64,000 nucleotides of DNA, from positions 320,001-384,000 of the forward strand of contig CAVVYZ010000001.1 in the NCBI GenBank assembly GCA_963752595.1, read 5' to 3'. The position numbers were made by a program, and so were the translations under genes. Source of the stretch: an uncultured delta proteobacterium (GTDB taxonomy: Bacteria > Desulfobacterota > Desulfomonilia > UBA1062). Numbering within the stretch: the stretch's first letter is position 1; every line of letters starts with the position of its first letter. Shown in pieces: positions 5,840 through 19,409 of this stretch. Below the pieces are notes generated by a model. That model worked only from the letters and a program-made list of their open reading frames with translations, was not told the origin of the DNA and made no database searches.

Positions 5840-7078
5840 TCAGACCCTTTCCAGGAGATGGATCGTCATGGAAGCCTCTTCCACTCCCAGGTTGCCGCCG
5901 CCGTTCTCGGTGAGGCCGATCCTCGCTCCCTGGACCTGGCGTTTCCCGGCCTCTCCCCTGAGCTGCGTTACCACCTCGTAGAACTGGGCGAGCCCGGACG
6001 CACCGATGGGATGTCCCCGGCATTCCAGGCCGCCGCTCGTGTTCACCGGGATCTTCCCGCCAAGGACAGTTGCTCCGGATTCAGCGAGGATTCCTCCTTC
6101 ACCCGGCGCACAGAAGCCCATGGCCTCATACTGGTGCAGCTCGCCGTAGGCAGTGGCGTCGTGAAGCTCGGCAAGATCGATGTCATCCGGCCCGAGGCCG
6201 GCGATCTCGTAGGCCTGTTTCGAGAGCCTCTCACCGATATCGATGCCATCGATGTCGCGGTCGGTCCCCGAGCCCAGCACCGAGGCCATGATCCGGACAG
6301 GCCGGCTATTTTTGAGCTTCTTCAGGTAATTCTCCGAGCAGATGATGGCGGCAGCCGCACCGTCTCCTATAGGCGCGCACATGGGCACGGTCAGCGGATA
6401 GGTTACGGGCCGGGCGTTCATGACCTCGTCTACGGTCATGGTTTCCTGGTATTGCGCCTTGGGGTTCAGCGACCCATGAAAGTGGTTCTTGGAGCAGATC
6501 ACTGCGAGCTGCTGCTTTGTCGATCCGTACTTCTTCATATGCCATCTGGCACCCATGGCATAGGCATCCATGAAAATGCTCCTGCCCTCGCCGGGAGGCG
6601 TTTCGCCGGCAGGCAGTTTGAAGTCGAGCTTCTTGTTGAGCTCCATGAACATGTTGATGTGCTGCTCGAAGTTCTCCACGTCCATGCACGTGGCATAGGC
6701 GCTGAATGACATTGCCTTGTTCTCATGGGTGATCTTTTCCGAGCCCATGGCCAGCACCACATCGTACATCCCGGACCTGACGGCCGTATATCCCAGGTGG
6801 AAGGCGGTCGAGGCACCTGCGCATGCATTCTCGCAGTTTACGATGGGGATGCCCCTGATCCCCGCATCCCAGAGCATGACCTCGCCCCGTATGGAATGCT
6901 GGTTCGCGAACATGCCCCAGAAGGTATTGGACACATAGGCCGCCTGGATGTCCTTCCGGGCGAGCCCTGCATCGGCCAGTACCAGGTCCACGGCTTCCTT
7001 GGCCATACCTCTTACCGATCCGCTGAGATACTTGCCGAACCGGGTCATGCCGACGCCGATAACGTATACATTACTCAT
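5840..7078 (-). CDS. Thiolase family protein (SCP2-thiolase/lipid-transfer type)
   Basis: GVGMTRFGK, NACAGAS (catalytic Cys region), ELHDA, GHPIGASG. Confidence 0.88.
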   Translation of the reverse strand: MSNVYVIGVGMTRFGKYLSGSVRGMAKEAVDLVLADAGLARKDIQAAYVSNTFWGMFANQHSIRGEVMLWDAGIRGIPIVNCENACAGASTAFHLGYTAVRSGMYDVVLAMGSEKITHENKAMSFSAYATCMDVENFEQHINMFMELNKKLDFKLPAGETPPGEGRSIFMDAYAMGARWHMKKYGSTKQQLAVICSKNHFHGSLNPKAQYQETMTVDEVMNARPVTYPLTVPMCAPIGDGAAAAIICSENYLKKLKNSRPVRIMASVLGSGTDRDIDGIDIGERLSKQAYEIAGLGPDDIDLAELHDATAYGELHQYEAMGFCAPGEGGILAESGATVLGGKIPVNTSGGLECRGHPIGASGLAQFYEVVTQLRGEAGKRQVQGARIGLTENGGGNLGVEEASMTIHLLERV

Positions 7079-7160
7079 GCATAACTCCTTTGTTGTGATG
7101 GATTGATGCAACACTCCCGTACGAATGGCCCCGAGGGGGCTTTCCCCTGATCAGCCATAC

Positions 7161-8426
7161 TCAGTAGGGTTTCTCCCCGAAGAGTATCTCGTGGCCGATG
7201 GCGAGGCCTAAGGTCTCGTTGGAACCGTCCTCGATCCTGGTCGAGGTGATATCCCGGAAGAGCTTCTCGATGACGTACTCCTTGGATAGCCCGTTTCCGC
7301 CGAATATCTGCAGCGCCTGCTGCGCCACCTCGAAGGCCATGCGCGAGCAGAACACCTTGGACGCCATGGAATAGGTGGTATGCGGCGGGAAGCTCCAGAG
7401 ATTGTAGTTCATGACGTTCCGGGAGAGCTGCCTGGAGGCTTCGATATTGATAAACATGTCTGAGAGCCTTCTCATGACGTCCTGGTGCTTGCAGAGGAGC
7501 TTTCCTCCCTGGACCCTTTCCTTGGTGTAGGACAGCGTCTCCTCGAAGGCAGCCCTGGCGCCTCCGAGGCACATGATGGCCATGTGGGCGTTCGCCGCTC
7601 CCAGGACCAGGTCGGTCATCTGCTCATAGGCGCTTGCATCGCAGATGATCCGTTCCTTCGGGACCCGGACGTCGTCAAAGTAGAGTTCTCCCTGGGGAAG
7701 ATCCCGCTGGCCGATTTTATCAAGGGCTTTTCCCCTCGAGACCCCCGGTACCGTGAGGTCGGCGATGGCGATACCCCCGCCTGCGAGACCCATGGATGAA
7801 TCGGTGCCGAAGAACAGGAGCGCCGTGGATGCCGTGGTGCCGTTTGATACCCAGGCAGCCTTCTGACCGTTGAGTATCCAGTCGTCTCCATCCTTTCTAC
7901 CCACGAGCTGGTGGCTGATCTTGGGGTTGTGGAAATGGGGCTGATACGGTGTGAGCATGTCAGAGCCGTGCTCGGGCTCTGTGATGGCCCAGCACCCGAG
8001 GAGCGAGCAGTCCCGGTCGGCCACGTAGGGCCTGATGACCATATCCTCGAGCTCGGGATAGTCTGAAAGGATCATCGAGGTAAAGAACGAGGGAAAGACA
8101 TCCACGCCGCACGCAACGGCAAGCCCTATGCTCCCTGCAGCCATCTCTTCAAAGAAGATGTGGAGACCCAGGGGGTCGAGCCCGATGCCGCCCATCTCCT
8201 CGGGGATGAATATGGTGTGGTAGCCGAGCTCGTGCATCTTTCTCATGCACGACCAGTACGGCGAGCCTTGCTTGGCCACATCCACTGCGCTCATCTTGTC
8301 GAGCTCGATGGATGCCGGCCTCACGACCTCTGAGGCGAACTTTCTGACCGACTTCTTCAATGCCTCGTGGTCTTCGTTCAAACTGATCTGGTCTGAAACC
8401 TGCAAATCAACAAAATCATATGCCAT
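7161..8426 (-). CDS. Acyl-CoA dehydrogenase
   Basis: WAITEPEHGSD, LNGQKAWVSNG, QIFGGNG, EKLFRD. Confidence 0.93.
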   Translation of the reverse strand: MAYDFVDLQVSDQISLNEDHEALKKSVRKFASEVVRPASIELDKMSAVDVAKQGSPYWSCMRKMHELGYHTIFIPEEMGGIGLDPLGLHIFFEEMAAGSIGLAVACGVDVFPSFFTSMILSDYPELEDMVIRPYVADRDCSLLGCWAITEPEHGSDMLTPYQPHFHNPKISHQLVGRKDGDDWILNGQKAAWVSNGTTASTALLFFGTDSSMGLAGGGIAIADLTVPGVSRGKALDKIGQRDLPQGELYFDDVRVPKERIICDASAYEQMTDLVLGAANAHMAIMCLGGARAAFEETLSYTKERVQGGKLLCKHQDVMRRLSDMFINIEASRQLSRNVMNYNLWSFPPHTTYSMASKVFCSRMAFEVAQQALQIFGGNGLSKEYVIEKLFRDITSTRIEDGSNETLGLAIGHEILFGEKPY

Positions 8427-8464
8427 GGTATCCGCTCCTTATTGTGTGGTGATGCAGCCCTTCG

Positions 8465-10063
8465 TTACATGCGAAAGACATTGGATGCGCCCTTGCTGAA
8501 CTCGTCGCGCAGAACACGGTCGAGGTTCTTTTCCGATGCGGTTTTGGGAATTTCGGCCACCACCTGGAGAAACTGGGGGATGAAGCTCTTCTCCAGTACC
8601 CGGCCGAGATCGGCAGCAACCTTTCTATGGTCGATTGCCATCCCTGTAGCCGGCACGATGGCGGCGACGATGTCGCTCTCGCCCGGTGCCCCTGACTCGG
8701 CGGGTATCCCGTATACGCAGACGTCGGTTATTTCGGGGAGATCAGCCAGCGCCTTCTCGACATACTCGGGCAGGATGAAATCACCATGACGCCTCAGGCC
8801 GCCACCCTTTCTGTAGTCGAAGAACAGCCAGCCGTCCTTGTCCTTGTGGCACATGTCGCCCGTTCTGAGCACGCCTCCGCGGGTCTTCTCCTCCGAGGCC
8901 TTCTTCTTGCCCAGGTACTCCACCTCCACCTTGCCCTGCTTCTGGGCTACCACGAGCTCGCCGATCTCACCCGGCTCGCACTCGGAATCGTCATCCCGCA
9001 CGATCCTCGTATCCATGACCCCTTCGATGGGTTTGCCGAAAGACCCGATAGGCCCGGTTCCCGGTGCGTTGTGTGCAAAGCCCCCCTCAACGGCTCCGTA
9101 CCATTCGTGAATCTTCACATCGAAGCGGTTCTCGAAGTCCTCCCAGATACTCATGGGAGTGCCTGCGCTCAGGACCTTGCGGACCGGGTTGTCTGCATCT
9201 TCCGGATTTCTCGGCTCGCTGTAGATGCCCATCATCATGCCTCCCAGAAGCGAGAACGACGTGCAGCCGTATTTTCTGCATATGTCCCACAGCCTGCTCT
9301 TGGTGAACTTGCGGCTGATGACCGAGGGGATGTTCAGTACGAGGGAAGGCACCAGGGTCACGGACTGGGCATTGCCGTGGGTCAGGGATAGGCCGGTATA
9401 GAGCTTGTCTTCCGCGGTGTACTGCCAGATGAACTGGGCGAGCATCGTGAACATGGGAAGCCTGCCGCCCTTTATGACCACACCCTTGGGGTCGCCCGTG
9501 GTCCCCGAGGTGTAGATGACCTCGAAGGGTATGTTCACCTCTTTGTTGACAGCATCGGGCAGCCCGCGATCAGGACCATCGAGTATCTCGTTGAAGGAGG
9601 GATATTTCTCCGGGGCAGCCTTTCCAAAGCCTTCCTTTGATAAGACGCCGATCACATTCACATCCGGAAGTTGGGACAAAGACTTCTCCACATCGTCCAT
9701 GAATTCGGCAGTGAATATGATGCCCTTGGAATTGGAATCCCTGATCTGATAGCTGAGCTTGCTCCCCTTGGAGCGCGGATCGATGGGCACCACGACGGCC
9801 CCGGTAATGGATGCCGCAAGCATAGTATAGAGAAATTCCGGGTGGTTGCGCATGACGAGGCTGAAACGGTCGCCTTTGCCGATGCCTGCCTTCTGCAGGC
9901 CACGTGCTGCCTTGCAGCTCTTCAGGAACAGATCGCCGTACGTGACGACCTCATCTGCCAGGCCTTCTCCGTTCTCGAAGGTAACGATCTGCAAATCGGG
10001 AAACGCCTCGGCCTTTGCCCGGATCTCGTCCCAGAACAAACCGGCTGTACACTCTTCAGACAT
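8465..10063 (-). CDS. AMP-forming acyl-CoA synthetase (CaiC-like)
   Basis: YTSGTTGDPKG, YGAVEG, RTGD, IPKTASEK. Confidence 0.92.
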   Translation of the reverse strand: MSEECTAGLFWDEIRAKAEAFPDLQIVTFENGEGLADEVVTYGDLFLKSCKAARGLQKAGIGKGDRFSLVMRNHPEFLYTMLAASITGAVVVPIDPRSKGSKLSYQIRDSNSKGIIFTAEFMDDVEKSLSQLPDVNVIGVLSKEGFGKAAPEKYPSFNEILDGPDRGLPDAVNKEVNIPFEVIYTSGTTGDPKGVVIKGGRLPMFTMLAQFIWQYTAEDKLYTGLSLTHGNAQSVTLVPSLVLNIPSVISRKFTKSRLWDICRKYGCTSFSLLGGMMMGIYSEPRNPEDADNPVRKVLSAGTPMSIWEDFENRFDVKIHEWYGAVEGGFAHNAPGTGPIGSFGKPIEGVMDTRIVRDDDSECEPGEIGELVVAQKQGKVEVEYLGKKKASEEKTRGGVLRTGDMCHKDKDGWLFFDYRKGGGLRRHGDFILPEYVEKALADLPEITDVCVYGIPAESGAPGESDIVAAIVPATGMAIDHRKVAADLGRVLEKSFIPQFLQVVAEIPKTASEKNLDRVLRDEFSKGASNVFRM

Positions 10064-10118
10064 ACGACCTCCTTGTTTCTTGGTGTTGGAAAATGTATGG
10101 AAAGCTCTGATGCAGGCC

Positions 10119-10502
10119 CTAGATGCCGTGTTTTTTCATGTACTCCGGGTACATCTCATATGCGGGCTTCAACATCGGCAGGAGCTTCATGACCTTGGCG
10201 ATATTCCCTTTTGACCTGATCTGCCTTTTCGCGAGCGCGATGGGCAGGTTGAGCTCTTTTTTCCAGAAAGCATGACACGTATCTCCGGAGAGCTGCATGG
10301 TGATGTCTGCCTTCAGGTTCTGCTCCCCGAATTCGATGCCGTCCGGGCCTACCCAGAGCACTGCGGCCGGGTCGGAGATCTCGAACTTCAGCTGGATGGA
10401 TGCGTTCTTCACCGCACTGTTGAAATCCGGCCTTTCATACAGTGCCTTCCAGAAGCCGCCCAGGACCTCGTACAGGTTATCCGTATTCTTGAATACCGCC
10501 AT
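10119..10502 (-). CDS. SCP2 sterol/lipid-binding domain protein
   Basis: 127 aa with SCP2-like C-terminus LNLPIALAKRQIRSKGNIAKVMKL; first gene of a lipid operon. Confidence 0.75.
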   Translation of the reverse strand: MAVFKNTDNLYEVLGGFWKALYERPDFNSAVKNASIQLKFEISDPAAVLWVGPDGIEFGEQNLKADITMQLSGDTCHAFWKKELNLPIALAKRQIRSKGNIAKVMKLLPMLKPAYEMYPEYMKKHGI

Positions 10503-10590
10503 GATAAACCCCCTTTGATGTGTAAATGACTTATTGTCTTACAATTTTAGTGCTGGCCCCGAGGGTAATATGGGCGGGATTTTGAAACAA

Positions 10591-10716
10591 TGTGAGGCGG
10601 GGTCAATTATGTTGTGACTTTCGGACAAGCAGGACGGCCGGGCTCGCTTTTCAAGCTGTGAAGGGGTTTTCCCCGAGGGTGGCCCAAAATAACAATGAAA
10701 ATGTCCTTATTACATA
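10591..10716. promoter_or_regulatory. Two divergent tandem direct-repeat pairs (TGNCC-N7-ACA, 22-bp period); putative AraC-family operators
   Basis: Minus strand: TGTCCGAAAGTCACA (10627-10613) and TGACCCCGCCTCACA (10605-10591). Plus strand: TGGCCCAAAATAACA (10680-10694) and TGTCCTTATTACATA (10702-10716). Confidence 0.55.
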
Positions 10717-10909
10717 ATACCGGGAGCTCGATTATGATATAAAAGAAGAAATGTAGAATGTGATATCATTGGTTGATATTTCCAAAAATGGATCAGGCAT
10801 TTAAGGAGTAATAGAGGGCCCTTTTCATGAGAAGCAGGGCAGGAGAGGAGAAGAATGTGATATCCTTCGGCAATAAGCGGCCACTCTCAAGCTGCCCGGG
10901 TATTCTCGG

Positions 10910-11980
10910 ATGAACGGGGTATCTATGGTAAAACAGCCGTCATATCAGAATACGATTCATGTCAGGACCGGGAACACTCTACCCCTCTTTCGCTCTATCT
11001 ACACGGTAACCATCCTGGCCGATTATGCCAAGGCACAGGGGATCAACATAGAGAGATTGCTTGCCGGCAGCGGGATACGGGTCCAGGATCTGTATGACGA
11101 TAAAATATTCATTACCCCCAATCAGGAATTCAAGGTCTTCAGAAAAGCCATTGAAATGATCCCTGAGCCGAGGCTCGGGTTACAGATAGGCAGGCATTAT
11201 AACGTCAGCGCGAACGGCAAGGTGGCAATCCCTGCAATGTTCTGCGACACCTTTCTGGATGCGATACGGATGATGTACCGTTACATCGAGCTCACCTTGT
11301 CGCTCTTCCAGTATGAGCTAAGCGTAAAAGACGATCTTGCATGCATGACCATGAAAGACCTCACTGACTTCGGTGATCTCCGCCGCTTCATCTATGAAAG
11401 AGAGCTGGTGTCGGTCTATCTGATGAGCAACGGCATACTCGGGGTCCCCCTGGTCTTGAAAGAAATGAGATTGACCTATCCCCGGCCGGAGCATGCTTCT
11501 ACGTATCAGGAGATCTTTCATTGTCCGGTATCGTTCGGCGCGGATGAGAATCAGATCTTCTTTGACCGCAGTTACCTGTCCATGCCTCTGCCCATGGCGA
11601 ATGCACTTGCACGCCAGGCGTATGAGAAAGAATGCAAAAAGATGCACACCCGCCTGAAAGAGCAGGGCACCACCCTGGATAAGATCCGGCAGGAGCTGCA
11701 ATTCCCGGATGAAGGGTTTCCTTCTTTCGAGCAGCTTGCCCGCCGCATGAACTTTTCTCCCAGGACGCTCAGGCGGCACCTCATTGCAGAGGGTACATCA
11801 TACAAGAATCTGTTGAACGAGATCCGGAAAGAGAAGGCTATCGAGCTCCTGAATACCACGAAATTCCCCATAGAAAGGATTGCCGTCGAACTCGGCTACA
11901 GCGATGTGCCCAACTTCTACCATGCATTCAAGAGCTGGACCGGAACTACACCCATGAACTACCGGAAAATGAAACAGTAA
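10910..11980 (+). CDS. AraC-family transcriptional regulator (OruR/SphR-like N-terminal domain)
   Basis: C-terminal double HTH LARRMNFSPRTLRRHL...IAVELGYSDVPNFYHAFKSWTGTTP; FHCPVSFG motif. Start may be 10925. Confidence 0.92.
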   Translation: MNGVSMVKQPSYQNTIHVRTGNTLPLFRSIYTVTILADYAKAQGINIERLLAGSGIRVQDLYDDKIFITPNQEFKVFRKAIEMIPEPRLGLQIGRHYNVSANGKVAIPAMFCDTFLDAIRMMYRYIELTLSLFQYELSVKDDLACMTMKDLTDFGDLRRFIYERELVSVYLMSNGILGVPLVLKEMRLTYPRPEHASTYQEIFHCPVSFGADENQIFFDRSYLSMPLPMANALARQAYEKECKKMHTRLKEQGTTLDKIRQELQFPDEGFPSFEQLARRMNFSPRTLRRHLIAEGTSYKNLLNEIRKEKAIELLNTTKFPIERIAVELGYSDVPNFYHAFKSWTGTTPMNYRKMKQ

Positions 11981-16634: not shown

Positions 16635-17687
16635 TTACATGAAGTTGGACAGCTTGAACATGGTCAGGAAGGGCAGCGTGGGGAGCATCTCCCTGTGGGC
16701 GCCGAAGGTCTTGATCTCGGTGCCGCCGAAGCGCGATTTGGTGAAGTACAGGCCCTGGAAGTTGAATATCCGGTTGCCGTACCTGAAAAGGAGGCGGTTT
16801 ATTTTCTTCTGGAGGAACGACTCACAGGGCATGTCGCGGTCGTCCACCTTCAGGGGGCAGAGGCCGATGTTCAGGTTCTTCACGCCTTCCTGCTTGAACA
16901 CCTCCATGGCGTGGGCCATGAGCGGGTAGAAGATGCCCGGTTTGAATCTGGTGCTGAAGCGGGAGATGTTGGGCACGTAGCCGGTAATCCGGTTGTCCTC
17001 ATAGATGGGGTCGAAATAGATGAACCCGATGAGCTCACCGTTTAGATGCGCGGAGAACTTCCTCGTCTCCTCCTGGTACTCCATGTCCATGGGACGGATG
17101 AGGAAGCCGATCTCGCGGTTCCTGACCTTGCGGGTCTTCAGCCACTCACGCGTCAGGCGCCTGCACTCTTCGTGCGTGCACTTCTCGCTGATAATGACGC
17201 CTTCCTTTATGGCATGGTTCACCGATGTCCTCAGGATCTGCTTTTTCTTACCCTTGAGGTCCCAGTTTTCGAGATCCAGCATGATCTCGATGCCGAACTG
17301 GGTGGCATAGAGGCCGAATCTTTTATGGATCAGCTCGGCCACATCCTGGGAGAGCTGGACAAAGGTCGTATGTTTGTGATCCTTGAGGAGATCCCTGAGC
17401 AGGAACTCCCGGTCTTTAACCGCGCACACCGGGTCGGCGATGGTGAGCCTTTTGCCCCACTTTTCCCGGAAGGCGATGAAGCCGATGTCCGGGACGTCGA
17501 AGTAGTGCATATCGGGCTGGAGCGTCGAGAACGACATGCAGTGGCTGCCGTACTTGCGCAGGAACGCGAGCCTCTCTTCCAGGGAAAAGAGATCGACCCC
17601 TCCCCTCATCCTGGAGCGGAAAGGGTCGATGGAAACAACGTTATCCGGTGTTTCGGCGAGCGGTTTCAGATATGCTACCGTACCCAT
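16635..17687 (-). CDS. Stand-alone DUF2156 (MprF/LPG synthase C-terminal-like) tRNA-dependent aminoacyltransferase domain protein
   Basis: ADPVC, LENWDLKGKKKQILRTSVN, FKQEG...LNIGLCPL, FNFQGLYFTKSRF resemble MprF synthase-domain motifs (GDPVG...FNFQGLRxFKxKF). No TM/flippase domain. Confidence 0.75.
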   Translation of the reverse strand: MGTVAYLKPLAETPDNVVSIDPFRSRMRGGVDLFSLEERLAFLRKYGSHCMSFSTLQPDMHYFDVPDIGFIAFREKWGKRLTIADPVCAVKDREFLLRDLLKDHKHTTFVQLSQDVAELIHKRFGLYATQFGIEIMLDLENWDLKGKKKQILRTSVNHAIKEGVIISEKCTHEECRRLTREWLKTRKVRNREIGFLIRPMDMEYQEETRKFSAHLNGELIGFIYFDPIYEDNRITGYVPNISRFSTRFKPGIFYPLMAHAMEVFKQEGVKNLNIGLCPLKVDDRDMPCESFLQKKINRLLFRYGNRIFNFQGLYFTKSRFGGTEIKTFGAHREMLPTLPFLTMFKLSNFM

Positions 17688-17713
17688 ATATGCGCACTCC
17701 TTTTTTCAAAGAC

Positions 17714-19321
17714 TCAACGGTTCTTTCCCAGGCGCTCGTGGCTCGTGACCCAGTCGAGCGACGCGATTGCGCCGGCCAACGAGATCTCTCCTGCCGTTGC
17801 CGCAGCGGTCACGATCTCTGCGAACTTCAAGGCCTTGCCCTGACCATAGCACCCCAGCGACTCAAGGCACTCCCGCTGGGTGGGAAGCCCGGTGCCTCCT
17901 CCGTAGGTCGCAACGATCAGCGCGGGGAGCGTCAATGACCCATAGAAGTCGCCCTCGGGGGTGACCTCGGTGCAGACCATGCCGGAAGACGACTCGGACA
18001 CGTTGGCCACGTCCTGGCCCGTTGCCATGAAGATGGCTGCCAGGGCATTTGCCGCATGGAGTCCGTTGCTCACGGCACCTCCCATGAAGGCGCCGAGCTG
18101 GCATGCCCTGCAGAGGTAGTCGAGCGTCACGGGGTCCACCCTCATATGCTGGATCATGACCTCCCGCGGGATGCGGATCTCGCCGATGACCCGCTTGCCC
18201 CGGGTAGTGAGGTTGTTGATGAAGGAAGCCTTTTTGTCGGTGGAAATGTTGCCGTCCATGTAGAAGTGCCGGACCGTGTCCATCTGGGAGAGGATCCAGT
18301 TGCAGGCCGTGTAGGTGCACATGCTCACCATGTTCTGGCCCGCGGCATCGCCGGTGAAGTAGTTGAAGCGCAGGTATACGAGCCTGCTCGCCATGTAGCG
18401 GTCGATGCTGAGCAGCTTCGCCACCTTTGAGGCGGATTCGGCGCGCTGCCTGATCTCGTTCATGTGCGCATCGATCCAGAGCATGAAGTCCCGGCCTTCC
18501 CGGGCCGAGTCAAAGGCAAAGGCAGGGGAACGCTGCATGCGGTCCTCGATCACGGTGACCTTGACGCCCCCGCACATGTTGATGAGCTTCATTCCCCGGT
18601 TGTAGGATGCTACCAGGGTCCCTTCGCTCGTGCACATGGGGATGAGGAACTCGCCTTTCGCGTGCTCGCCGTTGACCAGGAGCGGGCCGGCAAAACCCAG
18701 CGGGATCTGTGCCACGCCGGTGAAGTTCTCGATATTGCCCTTGGTGACGACAGGGTCGAAGGAGTACTGCTTCACGTGGTTGAGAAGCGAGCCGGTGTAT
18801 TCCTCCACAAAATCCTGCCGCTGACGGACGATGTCCATGTTGTAGTTATCCAGCTTGTCGTACGGCATCTTCTTCCGGCTTGCCCTCGTCTCGATGACCG
18901 AATCTTTGGCCTCCAGGGCAAGCGATCCGTACAGGTCGGTGTCCAAGGAGATGCTGATGCTGTGCTCTACGCTTTTTGTCAGAGAGACCGAGCCCACATG
19001 GAATTCGACGTCCTCGCCCATGGGGAAGAGAAGGGGCCGTTCCGGGCCGATCTCGTCAGCCTTCAGGCACACCCCGCCGCTTCGCATGAGAATGTTTGAC
19101 AAAGGGATTTCGAGGCCGTTGATGGATATGCCCGGAAGCCCGATGATGAGGGCGTCCTTCATGGGGTTCTTCATGGCAAAGGACACGCCGTCTTCGAGAT
19201 TCTTCAGACTCCCGATGGAATAGATCTTCTTCATGATGAGCGGGGTTATGACGATATGGCTCCCGGCATCGGTTGCCTTGCGGACCAGCACGAGCCCTGG
19301 CTCTTTCGGAACATTTCCCAT
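17714..19321 (-). CDS. Class I HMG-CoA reductase-like protein with an extra N-terminal domain of about 150 aa
   Basis: ENFTG, PMCTSEGTLVASYNRG, TGDAAGQNM, DKK, ATGQDVAN, GGGTGLPTQ, GEISL and C-terminal catalytic His (HERLG). Start at 19321 or 19369. Confidence 0.88.
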   Translation of the reverse strand: MGNVPKEPGLVLVRKATDAGSHIVITPLIMKKIYSIGSLKNLEDGVSFAMKNPMKDALIIGLPGISINGLEIPLSNILMRSGGVCLKADEIGPERPLLFPMGEDVEFHVGSVSLTKSVEHSISISLDTDLYGSLALEAKDSVIETRASRKKMPYDKLDNYNMDIVRQRQDFVEEYTGSLLNHVKQYSFDPVVTKGNIENFTGVAQIPLGFAGPLLVNGEHAKGEFLIPMCTSEGTLVASYNRGMKLINMCGGVKVTVIEDRMQRSPAFAFDSAREGRDFMLWIDAHMNEIRQRAESASKVAKLLSIDRYMASRLVYLRFNYFTGDAAGQNMVSMCTYTACNWILSQMDTVRHFYMDGNISTDKKASFINNLTTRGKRVIGEIRIPREVMIQHMRVDPVTLDYLCRACQLGAFMGGAVSNGLHAANALAAIFMATGQDVANVSESSSGMVCTEVTPEGDFYGSLTLPALIVATYGGGTGLPTQRECLESLGCYGQGKALKFAEIVTAAATAGEISLAGAIASLDWVTSHERLGKNR

Positions 19322-19409
19322 AGGAACATCCTTTCTTTGGAAACTTATAGGATAATTACAGCCGGACATACCGTTTCAATTGAGGGTAAGCAGGCCGAAG
19401 AAAATATTT

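Follow-up and report, generated by a model that had tools for sequence, protein, structure and literature searches.

In the window analysed here, a stretch of 64,000 nucleotides from an uncultured delta proteobacterium, a gene with the fold of class I HMG-CoA reductase (HMGR) stands next to a gene for a stand-alone DUF2156 protein (Table 1). This raises the question of which compound a reductase and a predicted aminoacyl-tRNA transferase could form together. An earlier note on this DNA had suggested a reduce-then-aminoacylate pathway, with mevalonate, an isoprenoid or another acyl-CoA-derived alcohol as acceptor.

Table 1. Features of the two-gene unit and its flanks (positions in the window)
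Feature	Position	Strand	Remarks
Sigma-70-like consensus match upstream of gene 1	19352..19379	-	1 found vs 1.3 expected, at chance
FcrA-type fatty acyl-CoA reductase gene (gene 1; class I HMGR fold; N-terminal Lad/PF25653)	17714..19321	-	535 aa; likely assignment from Pfam and residues
PF25653 match (probable Lad domain) in gene 1	18896..19237	-	Residues 45-158 of 551-aa ORF
Intergenic gap with AAGGAG ribosome-binding site	17688..17713	-	26 bp
Stand-alone DUF2156 (PF09924) double-GNAT protein, predicted aminoacyl-tRNA transferase (gene 2)	16635..17687	-	350 aa

The two-gene unit and its reductase

The ORF coordinates and the gap sequence confirmed the two-gene unit, its 26-bp gap and its AAGGAG ribosome-binding site. 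The longest ORF of gene 1 covers 17714-19369 on the minus strand (551 aa), its reading frame being open back to 19369. The ATG at 19321 is the likely start, because AAGGA lies upstream of it and most full-length homologues have 535 aa. Scans of the locus for promoters and terminators gave nothing above chance level, and GC3 is 0.83 in both genes. The source genome is 84% complete and 6.8% contaminated, and named relatives carry the taxon names Desulfomonilia or Deltaproteobacteria. A second copy of the pair is located in the same genome at C2:95634-98377 and is 61% and 59% identical to the window pair. Pfam matches also mark a fatty-acyl catabolic cluster near the window pair, at 5840-11980 (thiolase-like, acyl-CoA dehydrogenase, AMP-binding ligase, SCP2, AraC regulator), which is not among the recurring neighbours in relatives.

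Gene 1 matches PF00368 (E 2e-117) and, at its N terminus, PF25653 (E 2e-19). Judging from its position and size in the protein, PF25653 is probably the Lad domain, which stands at the N terminus of part of the FcrA family and is described as a putative carrier of long alkyl chains (PMC11948995). FcrA reduces fatty acyl-CoA and derives from HMGR (Grossi et al. 2025; PMC11948995). Pb-FcrA uses NADPH to reduce fatty acyl-CoA by four electrons and leaves HMG-CoA unreduced, and the substrate range of FcrA is given as fatty acyl-CoA with chains of at least C14, NADPH being the reductant (PMC11948995). The catalytic residues E233, K363, D437 and H528 are kept in gene 1, but its HMG-binding pocket is altered, with D356, C407 and W524 at the positions of human S684, K735 and L862. 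An acid in place of S684, a small residue in place of K735 and a bulky residue in place of L862 are the marks described for FcrA (PMC11948995, where the lysine is printed as Lys795 and is taken here as K735), and in HMGR, K735 is salt-bridged to the carboxylate of HMG (PMC9500038). All of the 53 distinct reductases examined next to DUF2156 genes follow this pattern, with D/E for S684, W for L862 and a small residue for K735; they all keep the catalytic K691, D767 and H866, and 52 keep E559, the remaining one being truncated. A Streptomyces HMGR inside a mevalonate cluster retains S, K and L at the three pocket positions, and the HMGR of locus L210 is also canonical. Gene 1 scores 332 bits against the TIGR00533 cut-off of 442 bits. 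Since every sequence feature given for FcrA is present in gene 1, it is probably a member of this family (PMC11948995), and it is likely to convert long-chain fatty acyl-CoA into the corresponding fatty alcohol. Thus, the description of gene 1 in the earlier note as a class I HMGR homologue with intact catalytic motifs holds for the catalytic E/K/D/H, but the HMG pocket is lost.

The search of the source genome for the rest of a mevalonate pathway (PF01154 and PF00288 only; genome 84% complete) revealed none: HMG-CoA synthase had no match, while DXR, and with it MEP genes, is present. The single GHMP kinase found is presumably IspE, as judged from a sequence motif. With no HMG-CoA synthase match, K735 lost and the HMG pocket altered, a mevalonate role of gene 1 was rejected. 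Mevalonate or an isoprenoid can hardly be the substrate of a protein with FcrA features, since the FcrA tested reduces fatty acyl-CoA and not HMG-CoA (PMC11948995). That gene 1 is nevertheless a true HMG-CoA reductase, so that the product would be an aminoacyl-mevalonate or an isoprenoid ester, is highly improbable: the PF00368 match, the intact catalytic residues and the incompleteness of the genome speak for it, but the lysine that contacts the HMG carboxylate (PMC9500038) is lost in all 53 adjacent reductases.

The DUF2156 protein and its gene neighbourhoods

Gene 2 matches PF09924 alone and has no membrane-spanning hydrophobic stretch (best 19-residue hydropathy 0.67). An N-terminal flippase domain of the MprF type was not found by Pfam, NCBIfam or hydropathy, in agreement with the earlier description of a soluble DUF2156 protein. 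Its structure model (pLDDT 83) matches 4v36 in Foldseek (E 6e-20, TM 0.70), and its PDB sequence matches are aminoacyl-phosphatidylglycerol synthase (aaPGS) domains. Model and alignment place a basic helix between the two lobes of a double-GNAT fold, a stated feature of DUF2156 aminoacyl-tRNA transferases (PMC7334510). None of 237 close homologues deviates in this helix (K147, R153) or in R243, the counterpart of R742, and 236 of them have Asn where the D-x-x-R motif of aaPGS has Asp. In a pocket mapped by hand with an inferred alignment offset, T179, N240 and R243 take the positions of S684, D739 and R742 of Bacillus licheniformis, and D739 is presumably an aminoacyl-pocket residue. S684 and R742 are named as such (PMC11630815). 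The specificity of DUF2156 proteins is not predictable from sequence (PMC8913301).

The DUF2156 subfamily is much wider than the source lineage, with 186 clusters at 50% identity at E below 1e-30; no relative was found on viral contigs. A scan of 21 longer members showed fusions to alpha/beta hydrolases in three and to a cholesterol-oxidase-like GMC domain in one; distant members with fusions of these kinds are P0303, P0348, P0386 and P0355. DUF2156 genes of ∼32% identity lie on alphaproteobacterial plasmids (L110, L111), in both loci divergent from an NAD(P)/FAD-dependent oxidoreductase. The source genome itself encodes a further stand-alone PF09924 protein of another type (C9:177695-178600) and an MprF-like gene at C9:184900-186742 (L003, L007), whose reading frame apparently breaks into two near the 3' end.

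In 41 related genomes, which are kin rather than independent samples, PF00368 was matched in 15, giving 26 loci. Of these, 23 are FcrA-type, the other three being a 913-aa fusion, a more distant HMGR and a fragment, and a DUF2156 gene adjoins 22 of the 23. The pairing is not unique to the source genome, and by these counts and the second pair on C2, FcrA-DUF2156 adjacency is more than chance within Desulfobacterota. Broad DUF2156 alignments proved unsuitable as patterns for scanning loci. GTDB genomes were therefore scanned with the narrow alignment A1; of 95 relatives, the best 80 were kept and yielded 77 loci, all Desulfobacterota-like. In 51 of these 77, FcrA is encoded on the same strand within 400 bp, and the two genes are neighbours in both orders and in tandem arrays. 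A PF07993 thioester-reductase SDR takes the place of FcrA in 16 of the 77, and both reductases are adjacent in none. The SDR, with an example at L072:1567-2877, has 430-460 aa, and the thioester-reductase domain of MxaA is its best match in the PDB; SDR and FcrA are unrelated reductases in the same adjacent slot. SDR-linked and FcrA-linked DUF2156 proteins form two separate clades (FastTree, 73 dereplicated proteins of 97), and therefore the swap counts as one event and not as many. Both types occur together in some genomes. PF00368 is absent from five SDR-type genomes, in four of which the methyltransferase described below is encoded at another place. No reductase is adjacent in 10 of the 77 loci (best 80 of 95), of which four end at a contig edge beside the gene and about six are not explained by contig ends. 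In the same set, a HAD-IB phosphatase adjoins the pair in 21 of the 77, convergently and within one syntenic block. At L086, L098, L099, L105 and L106, a methyltransferase-DUF2156-FcrA block is joined to Pfa-type polyunsaturated fatty acid synthase genes with PfaA, PfaD or FabA domains, as seen in one domain-scanned representative of each cluster.

A sample of 401 Desulfobacterota genomes contained PF00368 matches in 27 and DUF2156 subfamily matches in 8. The methyltransferase is confined to the five strongest of the latter, all of which also encode a Lad-type FcrA; they belong to one family and are not independent evidence. A close FcrA-like gene without DUF2156 is found in genomes G124 and G185, and G020 has one FcrA and one DUF2156 gene on separate contigs. 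Plasmid matches showed no FcrA-DUF2156 pairing, and the HMGR-like plasmid loci read have other neighbours. On a Sinorhizobium plasmid (L112:3037-12733), an HMGR-like gene whose product has a strongly changed active site is surrounded by genes for acyl-CoA carboxylase, indolepyruvate oxidoreductase and MmgE/PrpD. A different FcrA-like gene (L237:2132-10437, G398:C19; E at S684, no K735, F at L862) is fused to a kinase-like domain and stands at the head of a lipid-type cluster that also contains PPDK_N/PEP-utiliser, UbiA, CDP-alcohol transferase, PS decarboxylase and CarS-like genes. Similar clusters occur in L204, L239 and L252, with DUF3419 near that of L239, and clusters of this type may build phospholipids from fatty alcohol.

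The most constant partner of the DUF2156 gene is a methyltransferase and not a reductase. One SAM methyltransferase family is present in 37 of the 77 loci (best 80 of 95 GTDB matches), in 35 with FcrA and in one with SDR. In the source genome this class I methyltransferase (C2:94700-95359) precedes the second pair on C2 and is not beside the window pair; two more paralogues are located on C4 and C13. A further group of loci (best 80 of 212 metagenome matches, on contigs without taxonomy) encodes proteins 68-87% identical to one named Marinobacter adhaerens. Of these 80 Marinobacter-type loci, 79 carry the same methyltransferase, which the maps place directly upstream, and FcrA is found in none of the 80, a count that refers to the loci and not to whole genomes. 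A FarA-type gene (PF07993 and PF03015) lies within 7 kb in at least 31 of these 80 (12 whole, 19 cut by the locus edge), divergent on the opposite strand. It is 25% identical to the SDR over 191 residues, and its proximity may be plain synteny. The methyltransferase itself matches the PmtA HMM weakly (E 7e-5 to 3e-4) and 8ys9 with TM 0.74/0.76, at rank 22 among many similar class I methyltransferases; fold and Atlas searches gave the generic class I fold only.

Possible fates of the fatty alcohol

We propose, with a probability of about 45%, that FcrA provides a fatty alcohol, that the DUF2156 protein esterifies a tRNA-borne amino acid onto it and that the methyltransferase then methylates. 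In the first step, known for the homologue Pb-FcrA and predicted for gene 1 from its residues, a long-chain fatty acyl-CoA would be reduced to the alcohol by NADPH with four electrons. Gene 2 would then move an amino acid from aminoacyl-tRNA to the alcohol, as suggested by family chemistry and gene context, to give an aminoacyl ester. The third step is the weakest: the partner methyltransferase, encoded with the second copy on C2 and not with the window copy, would methylate the predicted ester, and N-methylation of the amino group is a guess. The predicted product would be a single-chain cationic amphiphile. The earlier note is thus supported in part: its two-gene unit is conserved, and its reduce-then-aminoacylate logic holds for an acyl-CoA-derived alcohol other than mevalonate, with the aminoacylation step itself predicted. 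It does not mention the N-terminal Lad domain, the second copy of the pair, the methyltransferase or the SDR that can replace FcrA. A wider module of interchangeable FcrA, SDR or FarA reductase, tRNA-dependent DUF2156 transferase and methyltransferase, forming N-methylated amino-acid esters of fatty alcohols ("aminoacyl waxes", a class of bacterial lipids not met in the literature search) from Desulfobacterota to Marinobacter, is offered as a tentative and rather doubtful extension.

A fatty alcohol as acceptor agrees with the pocket marks of the reductase, the presence of DXR without an HMG-CoA synthase match, the adjacency, the SDR in the reductase slot, the methyltransferase and FarA-type gene of the Marinobacter-type loci, the Pfa-type links, the ErgS precedent and the invariant basic helix and R243, and also with the lack of WS/DGAT. 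This wax synthase was detected in none of 25 family genomes, while 4 of 5 genomes of Desulfobacterales gave matches in the same search; the enzyme that usually consumes the alcohol was therefore not found. Evidence against this acceptor is provided by the 10 of 77 loci without a reductase (best 80 of 95), by FcrA without DUF2156 in G124 and G185, by the separate contigs of the two genes in G020, by the Desulfobacterales genome G431, in which an FcrA-DUF2156 locus and WS/DGAT occur together, by the single origin of the FcrA/SDR swap, by the methyltransferase being a more constant partner than the reductase, by the absence of FcrA from the Marinobacter-type loci (0 of 80, best 80 of 212), by the Asn in the D-x-x-R motif of 236 of 237 homologues and by an AGPS-like gene that could use the alcohol.

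The last point leads to the main rival. All 25 family genomes searched carry an AGPS-like gene, and the alcohol could instead be converted by an AGPS-like enzyme to alkylglycerol; DUF2156 would then aminoacylate the free glycerol hydroxyl of an ether lipid. In the source genome this gene stands beside a GlpD-like gene (C1:180750-184147, L261; E 7e-70 to Dictyostelium ADPS), ether-lipid roles are proposed for some FcrA (PMC11948995), and the HAD-IB phosphatase of 21 of the 77 loci (best 80 of 95) would fit. However, the AGPS-like gene does not track the FcrA-type genes, which occur in 14 of the 25 genomes, it is not a recurring neighbour in the 77 loci (best 80 of 95) or the 80 Marinobacter-type loci (best 80 of 212), and the HAD gene is convergent within its single syntenic block, so that we consider this route unlikely. 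It is distinctly unlikely that the genes are co-regulated and act separately, FcrA alcohols serving other uses while DUF2156 and methyltransferase modify PG or DAG. The nearest solved structures of gene 2 are indeed aaPG synthase domains, methyltransferase-DUF2156 pairs without FcrA exist and some DUF2156 copies stand alone; but two unrelated thioester reductases occupy the same adjacent slot, the catalytic domain of MprF expressed alone makes no aaPG in E. coli (PMC8131360), and the source genome has its own MprF-like gene on C9, though apparently split. Very unlikely, finally, is a reversion of DUF2156 to a CoA-dependent GNAT acyltransferase that replaces the wax synthase and joins acyl-CoA to the FcrA alcohol. 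While the missing WS/DGAT, the GNAT fold and the D-to-N change in D-x-x-R are consistent with it, the tRNA-binding basic helix and R243 are invariant, the DUF2156 proteins characterised in the papers cited here all use aminoacyl-tRNA (PMC8913301, PMC7334510) and the methyltransferase partner would lack an explanation.

Comparison with known systems

If an aminoacyl ester of a fatty alcohol is indeed formed, fatty alcohols would be a third acceptor class for tRNA-dependent lipid aminoacylation, after glycerolipids and sterols, and FcrA would have a use in bacteria without wax synthase, a gap left by the FcrA paper (PMC11948995). It would also be a biological route to cationic single-chain surfactants. 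The module is open to direct test, since FcrA homologues function in E. coli and the transferase is found, by record names, in the culturable genera Marinobacter, Hahella and Bermanella. No description of the FcrA-DUF2156 pairing was found in a literature search that was not exhaustive and had most subscription papers outside its reach. The main text of the FcrA paper does not mention DUF2156, MprF, tRNA or aminoacyl, and its supplement may show this gene context (PMC11948995).

The reductase shares with FcrA the Lad domain, the catalytic E/K/D/H, the acid at S684, the small residue at K735, Trp at L862 and a host in which no mevalonate pathway was found, but the partners described for FcrA are WS/DGAT, FadD, AGPS or PlsC-like genes (PMC11948995). 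Gene 2 resembles the MprF/aaPG synthases (4v36, 4v34, 7duw) in the PF09924 double-GNAT fold (TM ∼0.7, ∼20% identity), the basic helix and the R742 counterpart; it differs in lacking the flippase domain, in reaching 80 bits against 600 bits at the NCBIfam MprF cut-off and in its gene context. Fungal ErgS is likewise a free-standing DUF2156 protein; its acceptor is a neutral lipid alcohol, to which it passes an amino acid from tRNA (PMC8913301, PMC7334510), and it is thus a precedent for a soluble DUF2156 acting on such an acceptor (PMC8913301). The alpha/beta-hydrolase fusions of more distant subfamily members recall ErdH. However, ErgS/ErdS are fungal, use a sterol acceptor and have no dedicated reductase or methyltransferase partner (PMC8913301, PMC7334510). 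The wax-ester pathway (FarA, AcrB or FcrA with WS/DGAT) also reduces acyl-CoA to an alcohol that is then esterified, but WS/DGAT was not found in the family of the source genome, and the acyl donor proposed here is aminoacyl-tRNA. While FcrA itself is already known, the module would be a new variant of tRNA-dependent lipid aminoacylation with a predicted product.
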